NCBI GenBank assembly: GCA_049510055.1
Contig: JBEKZI010000017.1
Span: 1-32,226 of the forward strand
Reading direction: 5' to 3'
DNA: 32,226 nt
Source of the DNA: Phycisphaerae bacterium
GTDB taxonomy: Bacteria > Planctomycetota > Phycisphaerae > SM23-33
In this document: positions 8,715 through 22,155 of the stretch, in pieces
Position numbering within the stretch: the first letter of the stretch is position 1
How the letters are laid out: the number at the start of each line of letters is the position of its first letter
The notes under the pieces: generated by a model
What the model was told of the DNA's origin: nothing
Seen by the model: the letters and a program-made list of their open reading frames with translations, nothing else
The model's database searches: none
Position numbers and translations under genes: made by a program

Positions 8715-9066
8715 GGGGGCGAACTGGCTTCGACCGGACGAGTTGCGGTGTCGGTGGCGTGCCCAGGTTCCAAGGAGGCCTGGTAAAACACCTTGGACTA
8801 ACTTCAGATGCCAATCCCGAATTGGCACTGGCTGCCTAATTAGGTAGCCCGTCCGGTGGGTCTTGCCCGCGAGGCCCGCCAGGACGCAAGCAGCGGGCTT
8901 ACCGGCTGGGAGTGGCCCGGTTACCCAGTCGGGACATTATGGGCGGGCTCGCCTTCGCCGGACCGTGTCGCCGCGGGCCGGCGAGGGGAGACCAAAACAG
9001 CGACTACGCACGTAGAGGCCGGCACTGAAACGTCACGGGACCCGGGTTCGATTCCCGGCGCCTCCA
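8715..9066 (+). ncRNA. ssrA: tmRNA (SsrA), one-piece, ~352 nt
   Basis: The 5' end GGGGGCGAACUGGCUUCGACC matches the tmRNA consensus (GGGGnnGA..UUCGAC). The 3' end GGACCCGGGUUCGAUUCCCGGCGCCUCCA has a T-arm plus an acceptor strand that pairs with the 5' GGGGGCG (6 Watson-Crick pairs and 1 G-U pair). An in-frame tag ORF GCC AAU CCC GAA UUG GCA CUG GCU GCC UAA lies at 8810..8839, about 95 nt from the 5' end; the E. coli resume codon is at about 90 nt. An E. coli-like GCACGUAGA element precedes the T-arm. Confidence 0.8.
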
Positions 9067-9147
9067 TCCTGCTTCGCTCCGGCCTGAGGGGCCGGAGCTT
9101 CGCAGGACTTTGTCCTGCGAAGTAAGCGAAGCGAACTAAAAGCAGGT

Positions 9148-9473: not shown

Positions 9474-11615
9474 ATGCGGGATTTCACCCGATCTTTGAAG
9501 TACCTCTGGCCTTACCGGCTGCGGATAGGTCTGGCCCTGCTCTGCACGCTGGGTATCAGCGTGCTGTGGGCCGGCGGACTGGCTGCGATCCTGCCGGCGG
9601 CCAAGGTGCTGATGTCTTCCGAGGGCCTGCACGGCTGGGTGTACAGGCTGGCGGCCTCGGACCGCCTGGGCGTGGACCTGGTCTCGTACTTGCCCCCCGA
9701 GCGCACCCAACTCCAGGGCCAGCAGCTCTCTTGGGTGGTGGCGGTGGGGCAGCCCCATCGTTCGCACCGCAACGCCGGCGCCCTGCTGCCGGGCCAGTGG
9801 GTGGTGGGTCTGGAGGATGGCGACGTCGCTCACCGGTTTCTGCGGGCGGATGCACTGCTGCGGCTGCTGGCGATGCAGCAGCCGGATCGGCGGATCACGC
9901 TTCGCGTATGCCGGTCGGACAGCGACCAGATTACGCTGTTGCCTGTGGTGACAAGCACGTTGACCCTGTCGACCCAAGCGATGCTTTGGCTGACCCGGCG
10001 CTTTCCCGAGCCGCGGACCTTCGCGGACCGCTTCCCGATCCTGTTGACGCTGCTGGTCTTCGGGATCGTCATCAGCATCCTGCGCGACGCCCTGCGGATT
10101 CTTCAGGAATTCCTGTCCAGCTCGGCGGTGTGGTACGCGGTGAATGACATCCGCAACGACAACTACAACGTGGCCCTGCGTCTGCCGGTGGGCTATTACG
10201 CCAAGCACGGGACCGCCGACGCGATCAGCCGTTTCACCTATGACGTGGGTATGCTGGCCCGGGGGCTCATCACGTTGCTGAGCAAGACGCTGGTGGAGCC
10301 CGCCAAGGCGTTGGCGACGCTGGCCCTGGCGCTCATCCTGTCCTGGAAGCTGACCCTGATCGCCCTGATCGCCGGTCCGCCGGCATTCCTGGCCATTCGC
10401 CGGCTGGGGCGGGCGATGCGACGCGTTTCGCGCCAGGCGATGCTGAGCATGTCCCAAATGCTGGAGGTGCTGGAGGAGACGCTCGGCGGCATCCGAGTGG
10501 TCAAGGCCTACACCATGGAGAATCGCGAGCGCCGGCGGTTCCTGCGGGTCAACCACCAGTTGCTCCGCCAGAACCTCAAGGTGTTCTTTGTGGAAGCGTT
10601 GACGGCCCCGATCGTGGAGGCGCTGGGGATCACCGCGGCCATGGCCGCCGTAGCCGTGGCGGGATACTGGGTGCTCCACAATCAGCACGACTTGGACGCC
10701 GAGAAGTTCCTGGCGTTGATGGCGTGCCTGGTGGCGATGTTCGACCCGATTCGCAAGCTCTCGTCCGTTTCGACCGTCTTTCACGCCTCGGACGCCGCCG
10801 CGGCGCGGATCAGGGAACTGCACGATGCGCCGCAGGAAGTCACGTCGCCCGGGGCGCCCAGTCTGCCGCGCCACCGGCGCAGCATCGAGTTCCGCCACGT
10901 CAGTTTCCGCTACGACGGGACGAGCGATGACGCCCTTCGCGACGTCAACCTGACTATCCGGGCCGGCGAGAACGTAGCCATCGTCGGGCCCAACGGTTCG
11001 GGCAAGACCACGCTGGTGTCGATGCTCCCGCGATTGTTGGACCCCACGACCGGCCAGGTGCTCATTGATGGGACGGACATCGCGCGGTGCTCTTTGCGGT
11101 CGTTGCGGCGGCAGATCGGGCTGGTGACGCAGGACGCCGTACTTTTCCACGCCACGATCGAGGAGAACATCTCCTACGGTCTGCACCGTTCGCAGCCCGA
11201 CAAGACCCGCCGCGCGGCCGAGCGGGCCTACGTGGACGAATTCATCCGGAAACTGCCCGAAGGATACGGCACCCTTGTGGGCCCCCATGGAGCGACGCTC
11301 TCGGGCGGGGAGAAGCAGCGGATCAGTATCGCTCGTGCCATCCTGCGCGACCCGGCTATCCTCATCTTTGACGAGGCGATGAGCCAGATCGACTCCGATT
11401 CGGAGCACCGGATTCAGCAAGCGATGCAGGAGTTCTCACGTGGCCGGACGACGCTGATCGTCGCGCACCGCTTTGCGACGGTGCTGGCCGCCGGCCGCAT
11501 TGTGGTGATGCAGGCGGGGCGGATTCAGGACAGCGGCACGCACGACGAGTTGATGAGCCGCTGTGAACTCTATCGACACCTCTACGCCACTCAGTTCATC
11601 GCCACGGGCGGCTAG
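9474..11615 (+). CDS. ABC exporter (fused transmembrane and ATPase domains, MsbA/McjD-like) with a ~150-aa extracytoplasmic insertion between TM1 and TM2
   Basis: It has Walker A GPNGSGKTT, ABC signature LSGGEKQR, Walker B ILIFDEAMS and an H-loop IVAHR. Six hydrophobic helices are present, plus a long hydrophilic loop (residues ~48-190) after TM1. It is convergent with the RiPP operon. The 738-aa minus-strand ORF over it is an antisense artefact. Confidence 0.9.
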   Translation: MRDFTRSLKYLWPYRLRIGLALLCTLGISVLWAGGLAAILPAAKVLMSSEGLHGWVYRLAASDRLGVDLVSYLPPERTQLQGQQLSWVVAVGQPHRSHRNAGALLPGQWVVGLEDGDVAHRFLRADALLRLLAMQQPDRRITLRVCRSDSDQITLLPVVTSTLTLSTQAMLWLTRRFPEPRTFADRFPILLTLLVFGIVISILRDALRILQEFLSSSAVWYAVNDIRNDNYNVALRLPVGYYAKHGTADAISRFTYDVGMLARGLITLLSKTLVEPAKALATLALALILSWKLTLIALIAGPPAFLAIRRLGRAMRRVSRQAMLSMSQMLEVLEETLGGIRVVKAYTMENRERRRFLRVNHQLLRQNLKVFFVEALTAPIVEALGITAAMAAVAVAGYWVLHNQHDLDAEKFLALMACLVAMFDPIRKLSSVSTVFHASDAAAARIRELHDAPQEVTSPGAPSLPRHRRSIEFRHVSFRYDGTSDDALRDVNLTIRAGENVAIVGPNGSGKTTLVSMLPRLLDPTTGQVLIDGTDIARCSLRSLRRQIGLVTQDAVLFHATIEENISYGLHRSQPDKTRRAAERAYVDEFIRKLPEGYGTLVGPHGATLSGGEKQRISIARAILRDPAILIFDEAMSQIDSDSEHRIQQAMQEFSRGRTTLIVAHRFATVLAAGRIVVMQAGRIQDSGTHDELMSRCELYRHLYATQFIATGG

Positions 11616-11715
11616 TGACCTTCGCCTTGCCCATGCCATCCGCCGGCGGCCAATGGCCCTGTGTTTCCGGACTGATGCCCCCGGTCTCTCGGAATGCCGA
11701 TGGGGAACCCCCCCC

Positions 11716-13179
11716 CTACCAGGGCACGCGCAGGGCCCGGAGGGGATGCCGCAGGACGAACCGGGCCAGCTTGCGGCGCATCGCCCGCCGGACGGCGAGA
11801 TCCCCTGACGGGGTATCGCGAAGGTAGGCCCACCGCATCTGCGGTTTGACGGTGTACTTCAGGAACCTCCGGTAGGCGCGGTTGAGCTCCTCATCCGACA
11901 TGGCCGTGAGGTTCACCGACGGGCCCGGCACTTCGAAGTAGGAAAGGCTTCCCCAGGTCAGAGTGCTCCGCTCTTGTGGACTGAGGTCCTGGTAGATCGG
12001 CGTGCCGGGCAGCGGGAAAAGCCGGCCGGCGGCGATGATCTCGGGTCTGGCCTGGCGCAGGAACTTGACGGTCTGGTTCAAATCCCATGCCGTTTCGCCG
12101 GGCAGACCTACCATGATGTCGGCGAAGATGCGCAGGCCCGCCTGGCGGGTCAGCAAGACGGCCCGGCGGTTGAGCTCGGCGGTGGCGTTCTTGCCCAGCC
12201 GGCGCAGCGCGTCGCTTGAACCGCTCTCAAAGCCGTACTCCACCTGGATGCACCCGGCCGATTTCATCTGATTCAGCAGCTCGCTGTCCGCTTGGTCCAC
12301 ACGCAGGCAGGCGTCCCATTGGAGCTGTTGGTGCAGGCCGGCGCGTCGGATCTGCTCGCAGAGCTCCAGCAGCCGCGAACGGTCGGCCCCCAGCGTGTCA
12401 TCCTCAAAGTGGATGGCCTCGACGCCGAACCGCCGGCGAGCAACCTGCATCTGCTCGATGACGTACGGAATGGAATGGAACCGCACGCCGACGCCGGAAA
12501 TCAAGTGCCCGGCGCAGAAGCGGCAGCGATTCGTGCAGCCGCGACTGGTGCGAATGTTGATCGCGGCGAGCTTGAGCCAGCGGATCAGGAATCGCCCTGG
12601 CGAGGTGTAGTAATCCATGCCGAATAGGTCGTAGGCGGGCGGTCCCAGGGTGTCCAGGTCCGTTACCGGCGGGCGGTCGGGCGTGCGGACGATGCCGCCG
12701 GCGGTGCGGAAGGCGATTCCCCGCACCGCTGGGCCGGGCCCGCCCTCGGCCAGCTCTCGCAGGGTGATTTCGCCCTCCCCGATGACGGCGACGTCGATCT
12801 GGGGACACTCCTGGAGCAGATGCTCGGGCAGGGCGGTGGGGTGCGGGCCGCCGGCCACTACCAGCGTCGCCGGGCCGCAGATCGTCTTGGCGTCCTGGGC
12901 CGCGAGTTGCCCTTCGGGCACACCCGGGGTTACCAGGGACAGTCCGACTATTTGCGGCTGGAACTCCTGCATCAATGTCTGCAGACTCGCCCGAGCGGCC
13001 GGCCAGTCAAAGCCGTTGCGCACCAACTGTTCCTCGGCGACGTACACCTTGACCTCATGGCCGCTGCGTCTCAGGACGGTCGCGATGCAGGCGATGCCAG
13101 TGGGCACCCATTGGGATCGAAAGATCCCTCGGGGCCAATCGGAGCGAGGAGGCGCGGGATAGACCAGCAGGATTTTCAT
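11716..13179 (-). CDS. B12-binding (class B) radical SAM enzyme
   Basis: An N-terminal cobalamin-binding Rossmann-like domain (MKILLVYPAPP ...) is followed by a radical SAM CxxxCxxC motif (CTNRCRFC). The start at 13179 forms an ATGA overlap with the upstream stop codon. The track ORF extends to 13281, which is unlikely to be the real start. Confidence 0.8.
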   Translation of the reverse strand: MKILLVYPAPPRSDWPRGIFRSQWVPTGIACIATVLRRSGHEVKVYVAEEQLVRNGFDWPAARASLQTLMQEFQPQIVGLSLVTPGVPEGQLAAQDAKTICGPATLVVAGGPHPTALPEHLLQECPQIDVAVIGEGEITLRELAEGGPGPAVRGIAFRTAGGIVRTPDRPPVTDLDTLGPPAYDLFGMDYYTSPGRFLIRWLKLAAINIRTSRGCTNRCRFCAGHLISGVGVRFHSIPYVIEQMQVARRRFGVEAIHFEDDTLGADRSRLLELCEQIRRAGLHQQLQWDACLRVDQADSELLNQMKSAGCIQVEYGFESGSSDALRRLGKNATAELNRRAVLLTRQAGLRIFADIMVGLPGETAWDLNQTVKFLRQARPEIIAAGRLFPLPGTPIYQDLSPQERSTLTWGSLSYFEVPGPSVNLTAMSDEELNRAYRRFLKYTVKPQMRWAYLRDTPSGDLAVRRAMRRKLARFVLRHPLRALRVPW

Positions 13180-14090
13180 CTGGATTTCAACGTACTCCGG
13201 AACCATTGCCGGCGGAATGAGTCGCGCCGAGCGTGTCCGCGCAGGACGACGCCGCGGCTCAGTGCCAGGCGGCTTAACCAAGGGGGCCGGGACAGGCCCA
13301 GACGCCGCGCTAACTCGCGGCAGCGGCTCTCGCCCAGCAGCTTATAGGCCAGCCACAGGCCCATCGCAACCGCCTTGGCCGCCCCGGTGCGGGCCAGGGC
13401 GTCCTTCAGCCAGGCCTCGTCCAGTCCACCGGCCGCTTGACGAACCGCCAGCGTGAGGTCCACCAGCGGTTGCAGGCGATCGAAACTGTGGCTGGCGGCG
13501 CCGTGGACCGCCGCGATCAGGATCGTCCCGGCCGGGCTGGGATGGGGCAGAGGATCGGCTGGAGTCAGTTGCAGGTCCTCGAAGCTCACCGACACGCCGC
13601 GCCGCAAGGTGGGAGAGTTCACCAGGTTGGTGTGCACCTCCACGTGGCCGGCTGATCGCTGGGGCCGATGCCAGACCTCCTCCCCGTAACCCAGGGGGTG
13701 CTTCATGGCGACGACGACCGGCCGGTATCCCAGGTGCTCCATCCGGGGGCGTGTCGCGGCCAGCGCCGACTGCGGGATCAGCAGGTCCACGTCGGTGAAA
13801 GACCTCAGCGACGGGTGAGGATAGAGGCGATCGGCGAAATCGTAACCCTTCAGGACGATCACCGGCAAAGCAGCTTGGCGGAAGTCCTGGGTGATCTCGT
13901 GAGCCTGCTGCCGCAGCGCCAGGCACAGGCCTGTTCGTTGAAGGATCATGCCTGGGACGGATTCCCACAACGCCTGCGCCTTATCATCCCCGTTCCACAA
14001 CACCTGGCCGCGATCCGCCAGGCGGTGGATGTTGGACGCGACCGCCGGCAACACGCCGTGACGATCCGCCAGATCCAGCAGGAGTTTCAT
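13176..14090 (-). CDS. Nucleotidyltransferase-family protein (PF14907-like uncharacterised nucleotidyltransferase)
   Basis: The motif LKGYDFADRLYPHPSLRSFTDVDLLIP matches the family signature (hG-x-aromatic ... R-x-x-DiDlli). The start is taken at ATG 14090 (MKLLLDL); the track ORF begins at an upstream TTG. Family assignment is from memory of the motif and is moderately certain. Confidence 0.65.
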   Translation of the reverse strand: MKLLLDLADRHGVLPAVASNIHRLADRGQVLWNGDDKAQALWESVPGMILQRTGLCLALRQQAHEITQDFRQAALPVIVLKGYDFADRLYPHPSLRSFTDVDLLIPQSALAATRPRMEHLGYRPVVVAMKHPLGYGEEVWHRPQRSAGHVEVHTNLVNSPTLRRGVSVSFEDLQLTPADPLPHPSPAGTILIAAVHGAASHSFDRLQPLVDLTLAVRQAAGGLDEAWLKDALARTGAAKAVAMGLWLAYKLLGESRCRELARRLGLSRPPWLSRLALSRGVVLRGHARRDSFRRQWFRSTLKSR

Positions 14091-14184
14091 CTGTTCCCCC
14101 CGCAAGGGAGCGACCGTGACCGGTATGTCGCGCCCGAGGGGATCGGCCAGTGCCGCCAGAATGGAATAGATCGGCTTCAGAGGT

Positions 14185-15168
14185 TCACCTCAGCAGCGAC
14201 GTGACCAGCGCCCCAAGCTCTTGGAGGCGAGGGCCAAGGCTCACCTCGTACGTGTCGCTCGTGCGAACCAGCTCAGCCATGGCCGCGAACGCCCGCCCGT
14301 CGCTGCCCTCGCGGTGCTTCTCGTACGCACGCACGTTCTCGTTGACCAATCGGACCAGAGCGCGGGTTTTGTCCAGGGGATGCACCTGATGCTGCCAGGG
14401 ATTGTGGGGATTGAGGAAAAGGATCAGCCCCGCCGAGGCGGCCACGCGGGTGGTCGGCGCCGCGGCCGGCCGCACATCCACCAGCACCTCATCGTTTCCG
14501 ATGTGGCCCCTGTGAGGCAGTCCTGCCAGCCACGGCAGCATCTGAATCGTTTGGCGGTGGACCTTGCAGGGGAAGCGAAGGCCCCAGAGCTGCGCATCGT
14601 GGTGCGGCGTGGCCGGGCTGAAGAACGTGATGTCGTCGGCCAGCAGGCTGAAGCCTTCGCCGGCCAGGCCCAGGGCCGTGGTGGTCTTTCCCCTCCCGCT
14701 GAGGCCGGAGATGAGCACGGCCCGTCGCTGCGGCGGACGATCCAGGAACAGGCTGGCGGCGTGGATGACGTAGTGCCCCTGGTCGTTGAGGATGTCGCAG
14801 AGCCACGGCAGGACGCACGCCTCCAGCAGGCACCTTTCGGCCCCGGGCCGGACGACGAACTCCGCCCGCCCCGCCGACAAGTCCACGTCGGCCGTGGCTT
14901 GGTCGATCACCTCGGTTTGGCGTCTTCGCGGATTGCAGCGGAAGATGATTCGACTTCCGTTAGGCAGCGAACCCCGCCAGAATTCCGGCAGGTCCGTCAG
15001 GGCAGGCAAGTGCTGCGCGTAGCGAATGCGGAGGCAAAACGCCCCGTCGCCCGGCTGGGCGGCATAGGCGCCAATGGCGGCCTGCACGGGGGCGAGCAGC
15101 GCCGGGTCGTCCGCCTCGACGGCGATGCGTTCGCCATGAACGTCGAAATGGGCTTGGACGGAACACAT
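14185..15168 (-). CDS. HPr kinase/phosphorylase C-terminal-domain-like P-loop kinase (HprK-related kinase)
   Basis: P-loop LISGLSGRGKTTTALGLAGEGFSLLADD is typical of the HprK-like kinases found in RiPP and lasso clusters. There is no HPr-binding N-terminal domain. Only one in-frame ATG is available. Confidence 0.75.
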   Translation of the reverse strand: MCSVQAHFDVHGERIAVEADDPALLAPVQAAIGAYAAQPGDGAFCLRIRYAQHLPALTDLPEFWRGSLPNGSRIIFRCNPRRRQTEVIDQATADVDLSAGRAEFVVRPGAERCLLEACVLPWLCDILNDQGHYVIHAASLFLDRPPQRRAVLISGLSGRGKTTTALGLAGEGFSLLADDITFFSPATPHHDAQLWGLRFPCKVHRQTIQMLPWLAGLPHRGHIGNDEVLVDVRPAAAPTTRVAASAGLILFLNPHNPWQHQVHPLDKTRALVRLVNENVRAYEKHREGSDGRAFAAMAELVRTSDTYEVSLGPRLQELGALVTSLLR

Positions 15169-15177
15169 AACGTGGAT

Positions 15178-15299: not shown

Positions 15300-15410
15300 C
15301 CCCCCCGTTACATCCGAAAGCTGCTCACGCTTCTGAAACGTTGGCTGAGAAGAGGGCTTCTGGGGCGTTTCTACGCTTTCCCTAACCCGATACCGTGGCG
15401 AAGCCGCACT
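15300..15410 (-). pseudogene. Decayed ninth copy of a type-1 precursor-peptide unit (start codon and Shine-Dalgarno lost)
   Basis: It aligns base-for-base with the functional units (for example CATCCGAAAGCTGCTCACGCTTCTGAAACGTTGGCTGAGAAGAGGGCTTCTGGGGCGTTTCTACGC against TATCCGAGAGCTTTTCACGCTTCTGGAGCGTAGGCGGAGAATAGGGTTTCTTCGTTTGCATGC). TCTACGC replaces TGCATGC at the start, and the SD CTCCTTC is mutated to TTTCCCT. Confidence 0.5.
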
Positions 15411-15416
15411 GTCTAT

Positions 15417-15518
15417 TTAAAAGGGCCCCCCTGAGCCGCGGACCGGGCTTTGAGTCGTATCCGAGAGCTTTTCGCGCTTCTGGAGCGTTGGCGGAGAATA
15501 GGGTTTCTTCGTTTTCAT
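15417..15518 (-). CDS. Precursor peptide A, type 1 (33 aa): MKTKKPYSPPTLQKREKLSDTTQ | SPVRGSGGPF
   Basis: AAGGAGAT Shine-Dalgarno 8 nt before the ATG. The leader carries Y-17, P-14, L-12 and T-2. It is not in the ORF track (under 60 aa). It is one of 8 tandem paralogues. Confidence 0.7.
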   Translation of the reverse strand: MKTKKPYSPPTLQKREKLSDTTQSPVRGSGGPF

Positions 15519-15562
15519 GCGATCTCCTTCAACCGGCACTGTGGCGACGCCGCACTGCCCGC

Positions 15563-15667
15563 TTAACGCCTAGCGCCCGAGGTGATGGAGGGACCGCCTT
15601 GAGTCATATCTGAGAGCTTGTCCCGCTTTTGGAGCGTCGGCGGAGAATAGGGCTTCTTCGTTTTCAT
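15563..15667 (-). CDS. Precursor peptide B, type 1 (34 aa): MKTKKPYSPPTLQKRDKLSDMTQ | GGPSITSGARR
   Basis: Hand-translated from the minus strand. AAAGAGCT Shine-Dalgarno-like sequence. Same leader as peptide A; the core differs. Confidence 0.7.
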   Translation of the reverse strand: MKTKKPYSPPTLQKRDKLSDMTQGGPSITSGARR

Positions 15668-15712
15668 GCGAGCTCTTTCAGCCGGCATCGTGGCGACGCC
15701 GCAGAAGCCTAC

Positions 15713-15826
15713 TTAACCCGTACCATCCCTAGCGCCTGAGGTGATGGGGGGACTACCTTGAGTCATATCTGAGAGCTTGTCCCGCTTCTGGAGCGTAGGC
15801 GGAGAATAGGGCTTCTTCGTTTTCAT
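15713..15826 (-). CDS. Precursor peptide C, type 1 (37 aa): MKTKKPYSPPTLQKRDKLSDMTQ | GSPPITSGARDGTG
   Basis: Hand-translated from the minus strand. Leader identical to peptide B. Core carries the ITSG motif. Confidence 0.7.
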   Translation of the reverse strand: MKTKKPYSPPTLQKRDKLSDMTQGSPPITSGARDGTG

Positions 15827-15871
15827 GCGAGCTCTTTCAGCCGGCACCGTGGCGACGCCGCAGAAGCCTGC

Positions 15872-15985
15872 TTAAGCATTACCATCCCTAGCGCCTGAGG
15901 TGATGGGGGGGTCGCCTTGAGTCATATCTGAAAGCTTGTCCCGCTTCTGGAGCGTAGGTGGAGAATAGGGTTTCTTCGTTTTCAT
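15872..15985 (-). CDS. Precursor peptide D, type 1 (37 aa): MKTKKPYSPPTLQKRDKLSDMTQ | GDPPITSGARDGNA
   Basis: Hand-translated from the minus strand. AAAGGAGAT Shine-Dalgarno. Leader identical to peptides B and C. Confidence 0.7.
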   Translation of the reverse strand: MKTKKPYSPPTLQKRDKLSDMTQGDPPITSGARDGNA

Positions 15986-16030
15986 GCGATCTCCTTTAGC
16001 CAGCACCGTGGCGACGCCGCAGAAGCCTAC

Positions 16031-16141
16031 TTAATCATTAGCATCAACGCCCGAGGTGATGGAGGCCCCGCCTTGAGTCGTATCCGAGAGCTTTTCACGC
16101 TTCTGGAGCGTAGGCGGAGAATAGGGTTTCTTCGTTTGCAT
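16031..16141 (-). CDS. Precursor peptide E, type 1 (36 aa): MQTKKPYSPPTLQKREKLSDTTQ | GGASITSGVDAND
   Basis: It is the internal Met of track ORF 16031..16240. AAGGAGAT Shine-Dalgarno before this ATG. Confidence 0.75.
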   Translation of the reverse strand: MQTKKPYSPPTLQKREKLSDTTQGGASITSGVDAND

Positions 16142-16181
16142 GCAATCTCCTTCAACCGGCACCGTGGCGACGCCGCGTTGG

Positions 16182-16292
16182 TCACGGGGGTGTAGGTGTA
16201 ACCCCGCTGACGCCGTCGGGCACAGCGGTGATGTCGGCAAGCCGCTCCAGCTTCTTCAACACGGGTTTGACATAGGGCTTCTTGGCGTTCAT
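16182..16292 (-). CDS. Precursor peptide F, type 2 (36 aa): MNAKKPYVKPVLKKLERLADITA | VPDGVSGVTPTPP
   Basis: It is the internal Met of track ORF 16182..16364. AAGGAAT Shine-Dalgarno. The type-2 leader carries the same Y-17, P-14, L-12 and T-2 positions. Confidence 0.75.
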   Translation of the reverse strand: MNAKKPYVKPVLKKLERLADITAVPDGVSGVTPTPP

Positions 16293-16305
16293 GCGTATTC
16301 CTTGG

Positions 16306-16416
16306 TCACTCGGGTGTAACCCCGCTGACGACGCCGGGCGTACCCTGAGCGGTGATGTCGGCAAGCCGCTCCAGCTTCTTCAACACGGGTTTGGCATAGG
16401 ACTTCTTGGTGTCCAT
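16306..16416 (-). CDS. Precursor peptide G, type 2 (36 aa): MDTKKSYAKPVLKKLERLADITA | QGTPGVVSGVTPE
   Basis: It is the internal Met of track ORF 16306..16488. AAAGGAAT Shine-Dalgarno. Confidence 0.75.
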   Translation of the reverse strand: MDTKKSYAKPVLKKLERLADITAQGTPGVVSGVTPE

Positions 16417-16429
16417 GCGTATTCCTTTT

Positions 16430-16540
16430 TCAACCGGGTGTAGCCCCACTGACGACGCCGGGCGTGCCCTGAGCGGTGATGTCGGCAAGCCGCTCCAGCT
16501 TCTTCAACACGGGTTTGGCATAAGGCTTCTTGGCGTTCAT
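16430..16540 (-). CDS. Precursor peptide H, type 2 (36 aa): MNAKKPYAKPVLKKLERLADITA | QGTPGVVSGATPG
   Basis: It is the internal Met of track ORF 16430..16663. AAAGGAAT Shine-Dalgarno. It is the first gene of the array after B2. Confidence 0.75.
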   Translation of the reverse strand: MNAKKPYAKPVLKKLERLADITAQGTPGVVSGATPG

Positions 16541-16646: not shown

Positions 16647-17117
16647 TTATGGGGCTTGTGCAAGGTCCTCTTTGACGGAATTTTCTTGCGCCGCGGCCCC
16701 GTGGACCAGCACCACCGCCGCCGGGCCGTCCGGGGGCGACGTTAAGGCTATATCATTGAGCGTCACCCAGCCGTGGGCTTGGGTTCGCGGGGCCTCCGGG
16801 TTTTGCGGATACACGCCGATTCGCAAAACGGCCGGGTAGCCTGCCAGGCGCAGGAAGTGAAACAGGGTTAGGGACTGTCGCAGGCAGGGGCGACGGCGCA
16901 TGTTGCGAGGGTTTTTCAGACGTTGCGCTACCCGCTCCACGATATCCTGCCAGGCAATGCCCCGGTAGGGGACCACGGAAGTCGGGGGCGTCAGCACGCG
17001 TAACACTCGCTTGAGCGACAAGACCTTGTCCAGCAGGGGAATGAACGTCGCCACCAGCCAGATGTGCGCCCGTAACAACGGCAATCGCAGCGACATGGGG
17101 CCGCTAGTGTTGCTCAA
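16647..17117 (-). CDS. Lasso-B2-like leader peptidase (transglutaminase-like Cys protease, PF13471-type)
   Basis: The protein has McjB-type catalytic residues: Cys in the RRRPCLRQSLTLFHFL context and His/Asp in QAHGWVTLNDIALTSPPDG. It is ~156 aa, the size of a stand-alone B2 domain. It overlaps the B1 stop by 14 nt; an alternative start lies at 17096. Confidence 0.75.
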   Translation of the reverse strand: MSNTSGPMSLRLPLLRAHIWLVATFIPLLDKVLSLKRVLRVLTPPTSVVPYRGIAWQDIVERVAQRLKNPRNMRRRPCLRQSLTLFHFLRLAGYPAVLRIGVYPQNPEAPRTQAHGWVTLNDIALTSPPDGPAAVVLVHGAAAQENSVKEDLAQAP

Positions 17118-17397
17118 CCAGCAATTTCTCCTGAAGAAGCTTGCCCGCCAAGGCGGTCATGTCCCGGGTAAGCTCCTCTCGCGAGACTTCGTACTGTTCC
17201 CAAAGGGTTTCAATGGCCTCCCCGAGCGTCCGCCGGCCGTCCAGTGCCTGCAGGAAGGCGGCAGTGGTCTCATTGCACGTGTACAGGTACCCGGAGTTGA
17301 GCGAGAACACGACCGTGTCCGATCCGGGGCCCAACGACTGGTAGGTCACGTCGTCGGCCAGCTTCAATCGCAGGTTCAGTAGCGGTATGGCAGTCAT
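17104..17397 (-). CDS. PqqD-family RiPP recognition element (lasso B1-like)
   Basis: Residues 26-122 of the track ORF (MTAIPLLNLRLKLADDVTYQSLGPGSDTVVFSLNSGYLYTCNETTAAFLQALDGRRTLGEAIETLW...) show the PqqD fold pattern. The start at 17397 is chosen to exclude the non-conserved 25-aa extension. Confidence 0.75.
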   Translation of the reverse strand: MTAIPLLNLRLKLADDVTYQSLGPGSDTVVFSLNSGYLYTCNETTAAFLQALDGRRTLGEAIETLWEQYEVSREELTRDMTALAGKLLQEKLLVEQH

Positions 17398-17474
17398 AGA
17401 AAGCTCACCTGAAGGTTTTCGTACCGCCGAATTCGACGGCCGCATTGTATAGTCACCGCCGACTTTCCACAACC

Positions 17475-17678: not shown

Positions 17679-20165
17679 ATGAGACCACGGTTGATAGTGA
17701 TGGCAGTGGCCGCGACCTTGGCTGCAGTGGCATGCCTGGCGCAGGCCGAAAAAGCCTCCGTCCTTCTGGACAAGGGCATCTACACCGAAGAAACGCTTGG
17801 GAACCCCTCCGCGGCCATCGGCATCTACAGCCAGGTGGTCGCCAGCGGCGAGGCCGACCGCCAGTATGCCGCCCAGGCCCAGTATCGCATCGCGATGTGC
17901 CACCTGAAGCTCAAGCACGACAACGAGGCCCGCGAGGCGCTGAAGACATTCCTGAGCAAGTACAGCGATCAGGAAGAGCTGGCGTCCAAGGCCCGGACCG
18001 CGCTGGAGGACCTGCTGGAGTTCGACCCGGCGGCGCTCATGCCTCCCACCATCGTGGCCTACGTCGAGGTGGGCAGCCCCGGCAAACAGCTCGAGACGGT
18101 CCTGAAGATGCTGAAGGGCACGCCTTTGGCCAATCCGCTGGAGATGATGAATCCAACATCCGCGCCGTCGGATGCCTCCGCGCCGTCGGCGACCTCCGCG
18201 CCGGCGACTTCCTACGGCCGCCCCGCCAGTCCCGCCCAGGTCTTCTCGGCGTTGCTGAATCCCAGCATGCTGAAAGAGTTCAAGAAGCTTCGCAGCATGG
18301 CCGTGGGCGTCTCCGAGATCAAAGGCCGCGGCCAGAGCCCCTTCGTGGCCGTCTTGAGGCCCGGCGACAGCGACGCGCTCCGCGGGATCCTCACGGCCGG
18401 CGTGCTTGCCTCCGGCCAGCCCACCGCCCCGATCGAAGGCATGCAGACGGTGCAACTCAGCCCGGAGATGGCCTGCGCGTTCGACGACAGCGTGTTCCTC
18501 TTTGCCTCCCCGGTGTCTCAACTTGCCTGGAGCGTCCATCAGTATAAGTCCGGCGCGCCCGAACCCAGCCTGCTGACCGCCAACGAGTCGTTTTCGCGGC
18601 TGGCCCCTGCCGCCGATCGCAAAAATGACGCGCTGACGGTCTGGGCGAACCCTTCTCGGCTGCTCCAAAACAAAGCGTACATCCCGCCGGAAGCCCTGGA
18701 GAAAATGATGATCGCAAACGCCTTCGCCGACTTCGAAAACATGGAGGGCGCCGTCGTCCGGTTGCGCCTCAAGGAGACCAGCCTCAGCCTGGAGGCCACC
18801 GTCGCCTACCGCGAGGGGCGCAAAGCGTTTGGGTATGACCTGATCCGCACGTGTCCACTGGACCAGGCCGGTTTTGCCGCCGTTCCTCCGCAGGCGGTGG
18901 GCATCGTGGCCCTGGCCCTGTTGGAGCACACCGCCTCAACAGAACCTCCCGTCGCCGACGTTCGGCAGGAGACCGTCCGCCGTATCACCGGGCTGGACCT
19001 GGGGAGAGAGCTGTTCAGTAATATCGAGCAACTCTCGCTGTTCTTGATGCCGTCCAGCGAGGCGGCGACGGCCCATCCGTTGAGCCGTCTGTCTGTGGTG
19101 GCCCCGTCGCTGGGCCTGGCCATTACGTCGCGCAACCCCGCGCAGACCCTGGCCGTGCTGGACAGGATGTTGACGGTCCAAGGCCTGATGTCGGCAGGTT
19201 CCACCAGCGCCCCGGCGGCGGACGAGCAAGGCATGCGGACGTACGTAATCGGCGCCAGCAACCAGAAGCCGATATCCCTGTGCGTGGCGCAGAAAGGCAA
19301 GACCACGGTGCTGGCGTTCCTTCCGGAAGTGGTCCAGACGTCTCTGACGGCCCTGGGCACGGGCAAGAACGTCACGACCGACGGGCCGATGGCACAGGCC
19401 CTCGGCCAGGTCAGCGACAAGAACAAGGTGGTGCTGGTCAACGCCGGCGGACTGTTCCGCTTGTATGACGCCAGCGTCGCGCCGCCCGCGGCAAAACGCG
19501 ACGCGGCGTCGCAGCCGGCGACGGACAGCCAGGCCGTGGCCGATCAGATCGCCTCGGCCCTGGACGACACGGTAATCCGGCTGGAGACCTCCGAACTGCC
19601 GAACACCATGACGGTCCGCGCCGAGCTATTGGGCATTCCGCCGCTGGCGAAGCTGTTTCCTCTGGTCATGCAGTATCAGCAGCAGCGCATGGCCTTCCAG
19701 AAGGCCAGGAAATCGCAAGCACAACCTTCCCAAGAGCGCAACAAGCTCATGAAGCAGGTCGGAACAGATTTCCTCAAGGCCCTCCAGGCAAATGACGAGG
19801 CGGCGATTGGGAAATTGATCGTCCCGCACTCCTCCGTGGAGGCCAAGATCAAGGACCTACTTGCAGTCCCGGGTCTGGCGGCGTTTCGGTTCCAGGATAG
19901 CGGCAGGGCGCTAAATCTCGGTTGGGTCCTGGTGTACGGGCCCGACAAGACGGATTCCTCGGCGCCCGCGATACTGATCCATCTGCTCAAGCAGGCCAAG
20001 TCCCCGCCGCCGTGGCTCGTCTCGGACGTGGAAATCCTTCCGATCCCGGATGCCATACACCAATTGAAGCAGTACGATTCCAGGGCCACCGGCGGCCCGA
20101 TGCCGGCGCCTGCGCCGGCGCCCGCGCCTGCGGGTGATGATGCGGCGCCCGCCGAGAACAACTGA
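17679..20165 (+). CDS. Secreted 828-aa hypothetical protein (Sec signal peptide, TPR-like N-terminal region, Ala/Pro/Ser-rich linker, C-terminal PAPAPAPA)
   Basis: Signal peptide MRPRLIVMAVAATLAAVACLAQA. The amino-acid composition is coherent. AAAGGGA Shine-Dalgarno. The overlapping 511-aa minus-strand ORF is an artefact. Confidence 0.7.
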   Translation: MRPRLIVMAVAATLAAVACLAQAEKASVLLDKGIYTEETLGNPSAAIGIYSQVVASGEADRQYAAQAQYRIAMCHLKLKHDNEAREALKTFLSKYSDQEELASKARTALEDLLEFDPAALMPPTIVAYVEVGSPGKQLETVLKMLKGTPLANPLEMMNPTSAPSDASAPSATSAPATSYGRPASPAQVFSALLNPSMLKEFKKLRSMAVGVSEIKGRGQSPFVAVLRPGDSDALRGILTAGVLASGQPTAPIEGMQTVQLSPEMACAFDDSVFLFASPVSQLAWSVHQYKSGAPEPSLLTANESFSRLAPAADRKNDALTVWANPSRLLQNKAYIPPEALEKMMIANAFADFENMEGAVVRLRLKETSLSLEATVAYREGRKAFGYDLIRTCPLDQAGFAAVPPQAVGIVALALLEHTASTEPPVADVRQETVRRITGLDLGRELFSNIEQLSLFLMPSSEAATAHPLSRLSVVAPSLGLAITSRNPAQTLAVLDRMLTVQGLMSAGSTSAPAADEQGMRTYVIGASNQKPISLCVAQKGKTTVLAFLPEVVQTSLTALGTGKNVTTDGPMAQALGQVSDKNKVVLVNAGGLFRLYDASVAPPAAKRDAASQPATDSQAVADQIASALDDTVIRLETSELPNTMTVRAELLGIPPLAKLFPLVMQYQQQRMAFQKARKSQAQPSQERNKLMKQVGTDFLKALQANDEAAIGKLIVPHSSVEAKIKDLLAVPGLAAFRFQDSGRALNLGWVLVYGPDKTDSSAPAILIHLLKQAKSPPPWLVSDVEILPIPDAIHQLKQYDSRATGGPMPAPAPAPAPAGDDAAPAENN

Positions 20166-20175
20166 TGATGAACCG

Positions 20176-22155
20176 ATGAACGCGGTTTCCATTGGCAGGG
20201 GTGAAGGCACAGGCCGCAGCCACGTGTTGCGGCCTGTGCTGGTCGTTTTGCTGGCGACGGTCCTGGTGCCGTCGGCCTGCACGTTGTGGTTCATGTATGC
20301 CGCCGTGCAGGAAGTGTCGCTGGCTTCCCGCCAGCGCCTGGCGGATGCCTACGACGGCGCGGTCCGAGGGGCCGCGGCCAGGCTTCAGGACTATTGCTCA
20401 GCCCGGATCGCCTCGCTGTCGGCCGGCGGCGATCCGTCGCCGACGAAGGCCTTCGACCGGCTGGTCTTGGCCCGCGCCGCCGATGCCGTGATCGTCCGCG
20501 ACGGCGCCGGCCGTCTGCTCTACCCCTCCCCCCAGGTTCCCTCCGGGCAGGCCAGAGCGATGTCGCAAGCGTGGCAGTCGGCGGAAGACTTGGAGCACGC
20601 GCAGGCGGACGGCCTGGCTGCCGCAGCCGCCTATGCCCGGATCGCCGACACCGCCCCCAATGCCGACCTGCGGGCTCAGGCGATGCTGGCCCAGGCGCGA
20701 TGCCTGGCCAAGGCGGGGCAGAAGGATCAGGCTGTCGCCATCCTGCGGGCCCTGGCCGAGAATCCCGACTTGCAAGCCGCCAGGGGCGCCCAAGGGCGGC
20801 TGGTGACGCCCAATGCCGTCCTGTTCGCCCTGCAACTGATCAACCGGCCGGAGGATGAGCAGTTCCGCAAGCTGGCGGCGGGCCTGGTGAAACGGCTCAA
20901 CGATTACGAGGAACCGGCGATGCCGCCCAGCCAGCGGCGGTTCCTCATGGCCGCGCTGTGGGAGATGGACAACTCCCTTCCGCCTTTCGCAACGCTTGCG
21001 GCCGAGAACCTGGCGGCTGAGTATCTCAGTCGCCCGCAGCCGGCGCCACAGCCGTCGCAACTAACGCCGACGTCCCTGCCCGGCGTTTGGCAGGCGGCCG
21101 GGCCCGGCGGCACCGTGACGGGTCTGTTCCGGCAGGACCTTCTGCTGGCGAACATGCACTTGGCCATCCAGGCGGACGCCCCCCGGGGAGTGAGCCTGTT
21201 CATAAGGCCGCCGACCGGCGAACCGACGACGCGGCAGCGGGCCTTCGTGACTTTGCCGGCCGGGGCCGCCTTGCCCGGCTGGACGGTGGAGGTCCTGCTG
21301 ACCGGCGACGATCCCTTCGCCGTGGCGGCCCGGCAGCGCAAGGCCGCCATTCTGTGGACGGCCGCCGTCGGCATCATGATGATCCTGGCGCTGGCGGCGG
21401 TGTTGAGCTACTACCTCAGCCGCCAGGTGCGGCTGACGCGGCTGAAAAACGATCTGATCGCCACCGTGTCGCACGAGCTGAAGACCCCCCTGGCCTCCAT
21501 GCGCCTGCTGATCGACACGCTTCTGGAACGGCGCTATGGCGCCCAGGAGCAGGCCGAGGAATATTTAGCGATGATCGCCAAGGAAAATGAGCGCCTCAGC
21601 CGGCTCATCGATAACTTTTTGAATTTCTCGCGGATGGAGCGCCGCAAGACGGCGTTCGTGTTCGCGGCGCTGCCGGCCGATGAGCTGGTCGCCGCGGTCA
21701 TGCGGGCGGCGCCGGATCGGGTGACCCAGCCGCCGTGCCGTTTTGAATTGGACGTGGCGAAAGACTGCCCCGCCGTCCGCGGCGACCGCGACGCGCTGGT
21801 GACCGTCGTGCTGAACCTGCTGGACAATGCCTACAAATACTCCCACGACCCCCGGCGCATTGCGCTTCGCGTCTTCGGACAGGAAGGCCGCCTGCACCTG
21901 GAGGTCCGCGACAATGGCATCGGCCTGTCGCGCCGTTCAGTCCGTCGGGTGTTCCGACGCTTCTACCAGGTGGACCGCAGCCTTTCGCGCTCGGTGGGTG
22001 GTTGCGGTCTGGGGCTGAGCATTGTTAAATTTATCGTCGATGCCCACGGCGGCACCGTGGACGTCTCCAGCCGGCTCGGCCAAGGGAGCACGTTCACCGT
22101 CACGCTGCCGGGCCTGGAAGACGGCGCGGGACACGCAGGCCATGATGAAAGCTGA
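20176..22155 (+). CDS. Sensor histidine kinase (TM helix, large periplasmic domain, second TM helix, HisKA, HATPase)
   Basis: H-box SHELKTPLASMRLLIDTLLE. N box LLDNAYKYS. G boxes DNGIGL and GLGLSIVKFIVDAHGG. The start is taken at ATG 20176; the track ORF begins at GTG 20134. Confidence 0.85.
   Translation: MNAVSIGRGEGTGRSHVLRPVLVVLLATVLVPSACTLWFMYAAVQEVSLASRQRLADAYDGAVRGAAARLQDYCSARIASLSAGGDPSPTKAFDRLVLARAADAVIVRDGAGRLLYPSPQVPSGQARAMSQAWQSAEDLEHAQADGLAAAAAYARIADTAPNADLRAQAMLAQARCLAKAGQKDQAVAILRALAENPDLQAARGAQGRLVTPNAVLFALQLINRPEDEQFRKLAAGLVKRLNDYEEPAMPPSQRRFLMAALWEMDNSLPPFATLAAENLAAEYLSRPQPAPQPSQLTPTSLPGVWQAAGPGGTVTGLFRQDLLLANMHLAIQADAPRGVSLFIRPPTGEPTTRQRAFVTLPAGAALPGWTVEVLLTGDDPFAVAARQRKAAILWTAAVGIMMILALAAVLSYYLSRQVRLTRLKNDLIATVSHELKTPLASMRLLIDTLLERRYGAQEQAEEYLAMIAKENERLSRLIDNFLNFSRMERRKTAFVFAALPADELVAAVMRAAPDRVTQPPCRFELDVAKDCPAVRGDRDALVTVVLNLLDNAYKYSHDPRRIALRVFGQEGRLHLEVRDNGIGLSRRSVRRVFRRFYQVDRSLSRSVGGCGLGLSIVKFIVDAHGGTVDVSSRLGQGSTFTVTLPGLEDGAGHAGHDES

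Follow-up and report, generated by a model that had tools for sequence, protein, structure and literature searches.

What chemistry does a cobalamin-type radical SAM enzyme perform in an operon whose neighbouring genes recall those of lasso peptide biosynthesis, and does such an operon make a lasso peptide at all? The question is raised by a stretch of 32,226 nucleotides, hereafter the window, from a Phycisphaerae bacterium (contig JBEKZI010000017.1), which carries the following gene:

11716..13179, minus strand: cobalamin-type (class B) radical SAM enzyme (rSAM), 487 aa, assigned from its Pfam domains, cluster motif and fold

Residues 22-143 of this protein match the B12-binding domain PF02310 in Pfam (65.3 bits for a cut-off of 32.1, E 5.8e-18) and residues 210-374 the Radical_SAM domain PF04055 (65.4 bits, cut-off 29.5, E 9.1e-18). 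The cluster motif CTNRCRFC corresponds to C215-T-N-R-C219-R-F-C222, the canonical CX3CX2C arrangement for a [4Fe-4S] cluster, and the three cysteines C215, C219 and C222 are invariant among 61 orthologues. The AF2 model (pLDDT 93.5) finds its best Foldseek matches in TsrM, AprD4, MgmA, OxsB, TokK and CysS, and a sequence search of the PDB places AprD4 first and MgmA second. The AprD4 structure is labelled a 1,2-diol dehydratase in the Foldseek match list; AprD4 possesses the same N-terminal domain, yet is not known to be a methylase. Pfam and the motif agree with the earlier note, which had read an N-terminal B12-binding domain and a CTNRCRFC radical SAM cluster in this gene, and its assignment to the class B type is borne out by the order of the Pfam domains and the class B fold match. 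By architecture, motif and predicted fold, the rSAM is a genuine cobalamin-type (class B) enzyme.

No curated NCBIfam model reaches its cut-off with this protein. The top score is that of HpnJ (158.3 bits, cut-off 577.6), next to BchE (143.4 bits, cut-off 481.35), and almost level with both stands the ApyD family NF050148 (131.8 bits over residues 28-400, cut-off 750), the best-scoring curated family specific to RiPPs. The P-methyltransferase models PhpK (115 bits, cut-off 600) and Sden_1168 (108 bits, cut-off 575) and TIGR03975, the RiPP maturation radical SAM C-methyltransferase model (71.8 bits, cut-off 281.85), score lower. A clade of BchE/HpnP-like lipid methylases had been named beforehand as the placement that would speak against a RiPP role. 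The HpnJ and BchE matches amount to only about 27-30% of the curated cut-offs, ApyD scores similarly, and membership of a lipid or pigment clade was rejected. Neither the window nor the related loci contain hopanoid or bacteriochlorophyll genes.

The rSAM gene is accompanied by the genes listed below:

13176..14090, minus strand: PF14907 (NTP_transf_5) nucleotidyltransferase, 304 aa from its ATG (Pfam 115.5 bits, cut-off 31.2)
14185..15168, minus strand: HPr-kinase-like P-loop kinase, 327 aa (weak matches below cut-off, and a Walker A motif)
16647..17117, minus strand: lasso-type B2 leader peptidase, a transglutaminase-like Cys protease, 156 aa (NF033537, Transglut_core3)
17104..17397, minus strand: PqqD-family RiPP recognition element, lasso B1-like, 97 aa from its ATG (Pfam PqqD)
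9474..11615, plus strand: convergent MsbA-like ABC transporter, 713 aa, a possible exporter by prediction

Positions 13176-13179 of the plus strand read TCAT, hence ATGA on the coding strand, where the rSAM ATG (13179-13177) overlaps the TGA (13178-13176) of the upstream nucleotidyltransferase gene, exactly as first described. The translational coupling proposed on this basis gains support from comparison, since 20 of 24 orthologous loci retain the 4-nt ATGA overlap; of the remaining four, three have a 16-19 nt overlap and one a 4-nt gap. Public gene calls begin the rSAM at an ATG located 27 nt further upstream, which yields 496 aa (P0001). The 487-aa start of the earlier note is favoured because the orthologues begin with MK, MN or MR followed by x-LL and are 486-488 aa long; with either candidate start the gene overlaps its upstream neighbour. 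Rfam was searched for cobalamin riboswitches and further RNAs around the operon and matched only a tmRNA, and sigma-70 promoters and terminators did not exceed shuffled expectation.

Kinase, nucleotidyltransferase and B2 carry conserved catalytic signatures. In the nucleotidyltransferase, whose reading frame could be extended upstream to a TTG at 14105, residues G87, D105, D107, E156 and H158 recur in 90% or more of the 26 orthologues compared. The kinase matches Hpr_kinase_C (20.5 bits) and TIGR04352 HprK_rel_A (38 bits, cut-off 200), both below cut-off; its Walker A residues G158-x-G160-K161-T-T163 and the pair D178/D179 are conserved in 25 orthologues. A homologue search with the kinase returned cassette members and two sequences at 27% identity, and gave no link to characterised lasso kinases. 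The B2 protein reaches 46 bits with NCBIfam NF033537 lasso_biosyn_B2 (cut-off 33) and also matches Pfam Transglut_core3, its C78 and H115 being conserved in 21 orthologues; its gene and the end of B1 share 14 nt. B1 itself scores 48 bits with Pfam PqqD (cut-off 23.4), matches the lasso PqqD models of NCBIfam below cut-off and could be extended upstream to a TTG at 17472.

Between B2 and the kinase lies a series of short precursor genes, recognised from the list of open reading frames, from sequence reading and from their tandem repetition:

16430..16540, minus strand: precursor A1, leader ending LADITA, core QGTPGVVSGATPG
16306..16416, minus strand: precursor A2, leader ending LADITA, core QGTPGVVSGVTPE
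16182..16292, minus strand: precursor A3, leader MNAKKPYVKPVLKKLERLADITA, core VPDGVSGVTPTPP, part of a 124-bp tandem array
16031..16141, minus strand: precursor B1, leader ending SDTTQ, core GGASITSGVDAND
15872..15985, minus strand: precursor B2, leader ending SDMTQ, core GDPPITSGARDGNA
15713..15826, minus strand: precursor B3, leader ending SDMTQ, core GSPPITSGARDGTG
15563..15667, minus strand: precursor B4, leader ending SDMTQ, core GGPSITSGARR
15417..15518, minus strand: precursor B5, leader MKTKKPYSPPTLQKREKLSDTTQ, core SPVRGSGGPF, part of a 159-bp tandem array
15300..15374, minus strand: decayed ninth precursor copy

Precursor B5 has AAGGAG 8 nt 5' of its ATG, and in the ninth copy the ATG has become GTA and Tyr-17 a Ser, leaving no in-frame start codon. 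The leaders display Tyr-17, Pro-14, Leu-12 and Thr-2, the canonical lasso motif, in a strict spacing that holds for all eight precursors of the window and for most precursors of 21 further loci; a few have Ala or Ser at -2 instead of Thr. Neither Pfam nor NCBIfam has a curated family for them. Precursors fused to Peptidase_S74 also occur. The cores had been described as rich in Pro, Val, Ile and Thr, which is roughly right: in the eight window cores Pro (15%), Thr (11%) and Val (10%) are indeed frequent, next to Ser (12%), but Ile accounts for only 4% and the leading residue is Gly (25%). Across the whole family Val (20%), Gly (19%), Pro (14%) and Thr (13%) dominate. The cores have a median length of 12 residues and a minimum of 7, and they are regular at three positions, with Val at position 6 (40 of 58), Ser or Thr at position 7 (51 of 58) and Gly at position 8 (30 of 56). 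No Cys, Trp, Tyr or Lys is conserved among them that could act as a second reactive partner. At their C-termini the window cores carry G, E, P, D, A, G, R and F, and never Ser.

This gene arrangement is widely conserved. Its order runs from the PqqD/B1 gene through the B2 peptidase, one to nine short precursors, the HPr-kinase-like kinase and the nucleotidyltransferase to the rSAM. Orthologues of the rSAM, 48-84% identical, are spread over Planctomycetota, Verrucomicrobiota and Syntrophobacteraceae. Of the 23 orthologous GTDB loci that have enough flanking sequence to be counted, 20 contain B1, B2, kinase, nucleotidyltransferase and rSAM together, and these five are the sole gene families conserved across loci. 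The MsbA-like exporter is kept solely in the closely related Phycisphaerae loci L001, L008 and L009, and no conserved exporter or other accessory gene was found across the orthologous loci. Housekeeping genes surround the cassette. Large contigs on which it is found include CAWGGE010000001.1 (6.2 Mb) and the 1.18-Mb contig of P0001. A thermodesulfobacteriotal locus (L057) whose rSAM is only 30% identical retains the same five genes and precursors, with cores of 5-7 residues (GISPE, GDSNPPE) in which the Ser/Thr is the only feature common with the main family. The cassette is missing from the remaining 48 loci, whose B12-rSAMs are more distant. Among the orthologues, one rSAM stands solo beside IMPDH (L027), and in L015 the nucleotidyltransferase-rSAM pair is found alone, the rest of the cassette being absent; an apparent loss of the nucleotidyltransferase in L020 proved to be an assembly gap of Ns. 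The rSAM is a core component of the cassette and not an added tailoring enzyme, and its gene is the signature of a predicted peptide-modifying operon conserved in three bacterial phyla. The B1 and B2 profile matches and the lasso-type leaders confirm the earlier suggestion of a RiPP-like operon with lasso-type recognition. Its companion statement, that a B12-rSAM had not been characterised alongside such recognition, also stands: full-text literature searches and curated families returned no paper or family describing a lasso-type B1/B2 cassette with a B12-rSAM. A mention of PF14907 in a phosphonate survey was unrelated to the cassette.

Does the operon then encode a lasso pathway? A Pfam search of all long open reading frames in the 32-kb window found no lasso cyclase (PF00733, Asn-synthetase-like). 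A scan of 32 loci for the PP-loop SGG[LIVMFA]DS, together with phmmer using E. coli AsnB, revealed none within the 10-kb flanks of the 30 orthologous GTDB loci besides one housekeeping AsnB. The latter, in L015, has full GATase domains, lies beside ParB and was rejected as a lasso cyclase. Asp or Glu is found at core positions 7-9 in only 7 of 58 cores and in none of the eight window cores, also when these are aligned in strict Thr(-2) register. Because the cyclase is absent from the window and these loci and the cores lack an Asp/Glu acceptor, the locus is something other than a lasso pathway that has gained one more tailoring enzyme. Judged on gene content, the cassette is a cyclase-less lasso-like RiPP family rather than a lasso cluster: the operon appears to reuse the lasso leader-recognition and leader-cutting proteins and, as encoded, cannot make a normal lasso peptide.

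From homology and conservation we infer every step of the following pathway. B1 would bind the lasso-type leader via Tyr-17, Pro-14 and Leu/Ile-12. The kinase would phosphorylate the conserved Ser/Thr at about core position 7, and the nucleotidyltransferase would decorate the Ser/Thr7 phosphate or hydroxyl in a manner comparable to PsmN acting on pseudomycoidin. Through the ATGA coupling, rSAM and nucleotidyltransferase may be produced in fixed stoichiometry. Using a 5'-deoxyadenosyl radical and methylcobalamin chemistry, the rSAM would place at least one methyl onto unactivated sp3 carbons of the core, most likely on the conserved Val/Ile/Thr at positions 5-6 adjoining Ser/Thr7. B2 would then cut after Thr(-2)-x, giving a short peptide of about 12 residues expected to be linear, methylated and phospho-decorated, not a lasso.

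The rSAM is thus read as the cobalamin-type enzyme of a self-contained RiPP cassette, and C-methylation of the core is our best guess at its reaction, one we consider about equally apt to prove right or wrong. It draws on the confidently modelled class B fold, the domain architecture and the CX3CX2C motif; on the five-gene synteny, the conserved ATGA coupling and the persistence of the cassette in the L057 variant; on the strictly lasso-spaced leaders and the regularity of the cores at positions 6, 7 and 8; and on the conserved catalytic signatures of kinase, nucleotidyltransferase and B2. Precedents point the same way. B12-rSAMs of RiPP operons methylate the C-beta of Val, Ile, Thr, Pro and Tyr, as in polytheonamide, bottromycin, clavusporin and the ApyD system, PsmK and PsmN offer a model for Ser decoration, and MgmA, a protein Gln C-methylase, is both the second-best PDB sequence match and a top fold match. 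Against it, the best curated matches are HpnJ (ring contraction) and BchE (a cyclase) and the best PDB match is the dehydratase AprD4, so that with OxsB the nearest families and structures include several non-methylating enzymes. Known RiPP beta-methyltransferases carry Cx7Cx2C, and TIGR03975 gives only 72 bits against 282. B12-rSAMs have also been described that form C-S, C-P and C-C bonds, some orthologues lie off-cassette (L027 solo, the L015 pair), and there is no conserved exporter.

The same distant relatives invite a different proposal, unlikely in our view, in which the rSAM would perform non-methylating radical chemistry on the peptide, such as cross-linking or cyclisation, dehydration, or elimination at phosphorylated Ser/Thr7, as the class-defining step replacing the missing lasso cyclase. 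Neither the nearest curated families, HpnJ and BchE, nor the solved relatives AprD4 and OxsB are methylases, C-C cyclisation and ring contraction are both reported for B12-rSAMs, the rSAM is always present where the cyclase is everywhere absent, and the spacing between the Ser/Thr and the cleavage site is constant, as it would be for a lasso ring acceptor. However, the cores offer no conserved second partner for a cross-link, the non-methylase family matches all fall far below cut-off, and the characterised B12-rSAMs acting on ribosomal peptides that were found in the literature are all methyltransferases.

Rather improbable is a scheme in which the rSAM acts not on a side chain but on a phospho-nucleotide or phospho-sugar built on Ser/Thr7 by kinase and nucleotidyltransferase, the nucleotide serving as a handle. 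In fosfomycin biosynthesis, Fom3 acts on cytidylylated hydroxyethylphosphonate, the nucleotide being the enzyme's handle. The link between nucleotidyltransferase and rSAM is the tightest of the cassette (ATGA overlap in 20 of 24 loci) and persists without the rest of it in L015, the nucleotidyltransferase has kept its catalytic DxD, the Ser/Thr is the sole core feature common with L057 (GISPE, GDSNPPE), and PhpK and Sden_1168 give moderate matches. These matches nevertheless remain far below cut-off (115 against 600 and 108 against 575), the product of PF14907 proteins is disputed even for PsmN (hexose or nucleotide), and the strongly conserved Val6 is left without explanation.

It is very unlikely that the rSAM simply tailors a genuine lasso peptide whose cyclase is encoded elsewhere in the genome. 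Phosphorylated lasso clusters typically contain B1, B2, this leader motif, a kinase and a nucleotidyltransferase, but within 10 kb neither the window nor the 30 loci have an Asn-synthetase-like gene (the housekeeping AsnB of L015 excepted), only 7 of 58 cores carry Asp/Glu at positions 7-9, and many cores are not long enough to form both a ring and a threaded tail (median 12, minimum 7, and 5-7 in L057). An equally long shot is a new type of ring, in which kinase and nucleotidyltransferase would stand in for the lasso cyclase and the B12-rSAM would finish or lock the product. Phosphorylation of Ser/Thr7 followed by nucleotidylation would yield an activated phosphoanhydride; once freed by B2, the alpha-amine of residue 1 would attack it to close a 7-residue macrocycle linked by a phosphoramidate, or by a secondary amine via a dehydro-amino acid. 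The sole basis for this idea is the hydroxyl at the usual lasso acceptor distance, the absent cyclase and the constant presence of kinase and nucleotidyltransferase. Finally, a non-peptide role (lipid, pigment or cofactor, HpnJ/BchE-like) in an incidental peptide-gene neighbourhood, to which the top NCBIfam scores, the solo orthologue beside IMPDH and the housekeeping surroundings could point, is barely credible given the synteny and 4-nt overlap across three phyla, the synteny of the 30%-identical variant, the lack of nearby hopanoid or bacteriochlorophyll genes and scores at 27-30% of the family cut-offs.

With C-methylation retained as the preferred reading, the cassette represents an uncharacterised RiPP family from uncultured lineages of anaerobic, peat and sediment origin (Phycisphaerae, Brocadiia, Verrucomicrobiota, Syntrophobacteraceae). 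Here the module for lasso leader recognition and cleavage appears uncoupled from lasso formation, with kinase, nucleotidyltransferase and cobalamin rSAM as its partners instead. B1/B2 would thus be reusable outside lasso peptides, and genome-mining tools that count lasso RREs would mis-file such clusters. The cassette also provides a test case for the function of PF14907 proteins and a new class B rSAM subfamily with obvious, short, predicted natural peptide substrates suited to mechanistic work; its interest would be greater still if the chemistry were not plain methylation.

How does the cassette compare with known systems? With PoyB/PoyC (polytheonamide), the bottromycin methyltransferases and MpcB/MpcC (clavusporin) it shares a cobalamin-domain rSAM in a RiPP operon, cores rich in Val, Thr and Pro and, here by prediction, leader-dependent action. 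MpcB requires its co-encoded partner MpcC, which the coupled nucleotidyltransferase may parallel. The beta-C-methyltransferases PoyC, bottromycin and MpcB, however, have the family feature Cx7Cx2C where the present rSAM has CX3CX2C, and those systems use other leader recognition and another protease, with neither kinase nor nucleotidyltransferase. ApyD, the Tyr C-beta methyltransferase of aminopyruvatide, likewise acts on a ribosomal peptide from overlapping genes, but it is 645 aa long with a fused RRE, compared to 487 aa and a separate B1 here, and its substrate motif differs; ApyD was expressed in E. coli carrying the btu plasmid for cobalamin uptake, with cobalamin supplied. TvgB (cyclopropylglycine synthase) was dropped as an analogue, being described as an RS-SPASM enzyme. 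MgmA (the methyl-coenzyme M reductase Gln C-methylase, PDB 9ccb), TsrM, TokK and CysS have the class B architecture in common with the rSAM (Foldseek E 1e-17 to 1e-24, TM about 0.62-0.67, identity 15-22%); MgmA places its methyl on an sp3 carbon within a protein residue, and the substrates and genomic contexts of all four are unrelated to those of the rSAM. HpnJ and BchE carry out ring contraction or cyclisation on lipids or tetrapyrroles, a context foreign to this locus.

The closest resemblance is to the phosphorylated or glycosylated lasso clusters of paeninodin (PadeK) and pseudomycoidin (PsmK/PsmN). In the latter, PsmK phosphorylates and PsmN decorates a Ser, the nature of the PsmN product being debated between hexose and nucleotide. 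PqqD-type B1, transglutaminase-like B2, HPr-kinase-like kinase, PsmN-like nucleotidyltransferase-family protein and the leader residues Tyr-17, Pro-14, Leu-12 and Thr-2 are common to both. In contrast with those clusters, the present cassette is without a lasso cyclase, and its cores do not offer Asp/Glu as an acceptor at positions 7-9. Its conserved hydroxyl residue is internal, at about position 7, whereas the phosphate acceptor of paeninodin- and pseudomycoidin-type lasso peptides is a C-terminal Ser, and the B12-rSAM is its added constant component.

One minus-strand operon holds the cobalamin-type (class B) radical SAM gene together with genes for the leader-binding protein B1, the leader peptidase B2, short precursors, a kinase and a nucleotidyltransferase:

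8715-9069, plus strand: tmRNA, tag peptide ANPELALAA (ARAGORN and Rfam, 153 bits)
9474-11615, convergent to the operon: MsbA-like ABC transporter
11716-13179, minus strand: radical SAM ORF, 487 aa
13176-14090, minus strand: PF14907 nucleotidyltransferase
14185-15168, minus strand: HPr-kinase-like P-loop kinase
about 15300-15374, minus strand: decayed ninth precursor copy, flanked by the kinase gene and the last intact precursor
15417-16540, minus strand: eight intact precursor genes, forming two tandem arrays (periods of 124 and 159 bp)
16647-17117, minus strand: B2, transglutaminase-like peptidase, passing the NCBIfam lasso B2 model (46 bits, cut-off 33)
17104-17397, minus strand: B1, PqqD-family RRE
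17679-22843, plus strand, divergent from B1: TPR protein (828 aa) and sensor histidine kinase
18137-18229, minus strand: tRNA-Leu(GAG) call (ARAGORN), inside the TPR-protein ORF

The tRNA call is probably a false positive since it lacks Rfam support at the gathering threshold. The remaining genes of the window are housekeeping (ArgJ, ArgC, MtnA, tmRNA, TypA/BipA, an SPFH protein, transaldolase and two Fe-S aldo-keto reductases). According to the gene calls in the compared locus L001, a response regulator also belongs to the divergent group, whose members might regulate the operon in this lineage; all three are absent beside the cassette in the Verrucomicrobiota contigs, and no further loci have their neighbours annotated.

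In Pfam, residues 22-143 of the radical SAM protein match the B12-binding domain (E 5.8e-18) and residues 210-374 the Radical_SAM domain (E 9.1e-18), each well over the gathering score. The three cysteines of its cluster motif, C215-TNR-C219-RF-C222, are invariant in 61 orthologues. Domain and motif agree with the B12-binding domain and CTNRCRFC cluster of the earlier note. The overlap of its start with the nucleotidyltransferase stop, proposed in the same note, is also present: bases 13176-13179 read TCAT on the plus strand and thus form, on the coding strand, an ATGA common to the radical SAM ATG and the upstream TGA. Public gene calls place the start nine codons earlier (496 aa); orthologues measure 486-488 aa and start at the Met of the 487-aa version, and the upstream gene is overlapped with either start. 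Four more cysteines lie outside CX3CX2C (residues 125, 274, 291 and 310), of which C310 is invariant, C125 and C274 are conserved to at least 90%, and C291 likewise in a 15-sequence alignment. The extreme C-terminus (residues 478-487, RHP-x-RA-x-R-x-PW) is also conserved. Candidate roles for these elements include such functions as a second cluster or an active-site tail.

A GGA-rich, Shine-Dalgarno-like stretch precedes every precursor ATG in the window; the decayed copy has GTA for ATG, Ser for Tyr-17 and no in-frame start codon. The leaders keep the exact canonical lasso register (Tyr-17, Pro-14, Leu/Ile-12, Thr-2, counted back from the cleavage site). Cores have a median length of 12 (n = 58), with Gly at residue 1 (44/58), Pro at residue 4 (28/58), Val at residue 6 (40/58), Ser or Thr at residue 7 (51/58) and Gly at residue 8 (30/56). 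Arrays in Verrucomicrobiota and in one Phycisphaerales MAG each include one precursor whose core runs directly into a fused Peptidase_S74 domain (L004, 6921-7388; L012, 6683-7150; L014, 7135-7599; L022, 316-708), the Pfam match beginning exactly at a Ser-x4-Lys motif (SDRNAKKNF or SDAKLKENI). In phage tail spikes Peptidase_S74 serves as a self-cleaving intramolecular chaperone, and a RiPP precursor with a putative self-removing follower domain is unusual.

Database relatives of the radical SAM protein number more than 1500; each of the best 120 clusters is full-length with at least 53% identity, and the named ones among them are Phycisphaerae, Planctomycetota, Brocadiia or Verrucomicrobiota. 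When the library is clustered at 50% identity, no more than three full-length representatives reach 473-532 bits and the next match falls to 322 bits, a drop that sets the orthologues apart as a discrete clade amid more than 31,000 B12-radical SAM relatives. Three metagenome contigs carry identical copies in unchanged gene order, and the same cassette occurs in a peat Verrucomicrobiota population, flanked by unrelated housekeeping genes. A GTDB scan returned 79 loci, 30 with a protein 48-84% identical to the query and 49 at 29-39%. Among the 23 orthologous loci with enough flank for comparison, 20 contain B1, B2, kinase, nucleotidyltransferase and radical SAM genes, mostly in that order, short precursors separating B2 from the kinase; in L021, B1 and B2 lie downstream of the radical SAM gene, and in L045 about 7.5 kb separates it from the other four, which are on the opposite strand. 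The exceptions are a nucleotidyltransferase-radical SAM pair (L015), a solo gene adjoining IMPDH (L027) and a 5'-truncated copy (L035). The ATGA overlap recurs in 20 of 24 loci, with overlaps of 16-19 nt in three more. Clustering of all ORFs recovered only the five cassette genes as conserved families, with no recurring exporter or other enzyme. Of the 49 distant loci a single one, L057 from a Thermodesulfobacteriota MAG (30% identity), has the cassette, complete but rearranged (9968-15172): the radical SAM gene is followed by three precursors with cores of just 5-7 residues (GISPE, GDSNPPE, MSTET), and nucleotidyltransferase, kinase, B2 and B1 are convergent. A DUF362 gene lies immediately upstream of the radical SAM gene. 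Linkage kept at such depth argues that the enzyme works with the cassette genes.

In L004 and L019, from an abundant peat Verrucomicrobiota population, codon 431 of the radical SAM gene is an in-frame TAA (11291-11293); a relative has CAG (Gln) there, and the 56 codons beyond stay in frame and conserved through the shared C-terminal RHPLKAMRVPW. A length of 430 aa is also seen in two separate 90% clusters, P0080 and P0087. The stop could mean readthrough, a gene split in two or a nonsense mutation of recent origin. A further cyclase-less set, in L088 (2522-5863) and L089, has a kinase 27% identical and then PqqD, preceded by a 524-aa protein without Pfam match, and contains no radical SAM gene; L089 adds a B2 peptidase, and L088 has a PF14907 gene on the other strand.

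No NCBIfam model reaches its cut-off for the radical SAM protein. The best are HpnJ (158 vs 578), BchE (143 vs 481), ApyD (132 vs 750) and the BzaD, PhpK and MgmA-type models; TIGR03975, which models RiPP C-methyltransferases, gives 72 against 282. Among solved structures, AprD4, MgmA (9ccb) and TokK are nearest in sequence; for a confident AlphaFold model built with the 61 orthologues (pLDDT 93.5, pTM 0.91), Foldseek puts TsrM, AprD4, MgmA, OxsB, TokK and CysS first, at TM about 0.62-0.67. The RiPP beta-C-methyltransferases PoyC, the bottromycin enzymes and MpcB bear a Cx7Cx2C cluster motif, whereas this protein does not. It thus represents a new class B subfamily outside all named families.

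Architecture, linkage, core motif and catalytic signatures are the observed part of the mechanism, the signatures being Cys78/His115 in B2, Walker A with Asp178/Asp179 in the kinase, and Gly87, Asp105 and Asp107 in the nucleotidyltransferase, all conserved. B1 would present the leader, the kinase would phosphorylate Ser/Thr7 and the nucleotidyltransferase would decorate the phosphorylated residue, as PsmN decorates phospho-Ser in pseudomycoidin. By the precedent of PoyC, the bottromycin enzymes, MpcBC and ApyD, the radical SAM enzyme would methylate sp3 carbons, most plausibly of Val, Ile or Thr adjoining Ser/Thr7, and B2 would cleave after Thr(-2)-x. We give C-methylation of the core about an even chance. 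Non-methylating radical chemistry is a distinctly weaker candidate; action on a phospho-nucleotide or phospho-sugar appendage, which the adjoining kinase and nucleotidyltransferase could supply, is somewhat less probable still.

A true lasso peptide whose cyclase is encoded elsewhere in the genome would suit the leader register and is improbable: no asparagine-synthetase-like cyclase occurs anywhere in the 32-kb window, and neither a PP-loop motif scan nor phmmer with E. coli AsnB found a homologue in the window or the orthologous loci. A single AsnB-type match was rejected: it adjoins ParB, its glutamine-amidotransferase domains are strong, and it is a genuine AsnB. Asp or Glu occupies core positions 7-9 in only 7 of 58 cores. 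Least credible of all, given the conserved linkage, is a non-peptide role.

The earlier note held that a lasso-type recognition system coupled to a B12-radical SAM enzyme was uncharacterised, and the literature searched offers no description of the cassette. Radical SAM goes unmentioned in a 2026 review on interlocked peptides; in a 2022 review on lasso modifications it comes up only for non-lasso RiPP epimerases. RRE-Finder handled about 300 lasso-type RREs co-occurring with radical SAM enzymes as false positives, some of which may belong to this family. Known lasso kinases use a C-terminal Ser as acceptor, a residue that ends none of the cores in the window. The cassette shares leader, B1 and B2 features with lasso clusters but lacks the two defining features tested, and is not a lasso pathway; it represents a RiPP family of known parts in a new combination.
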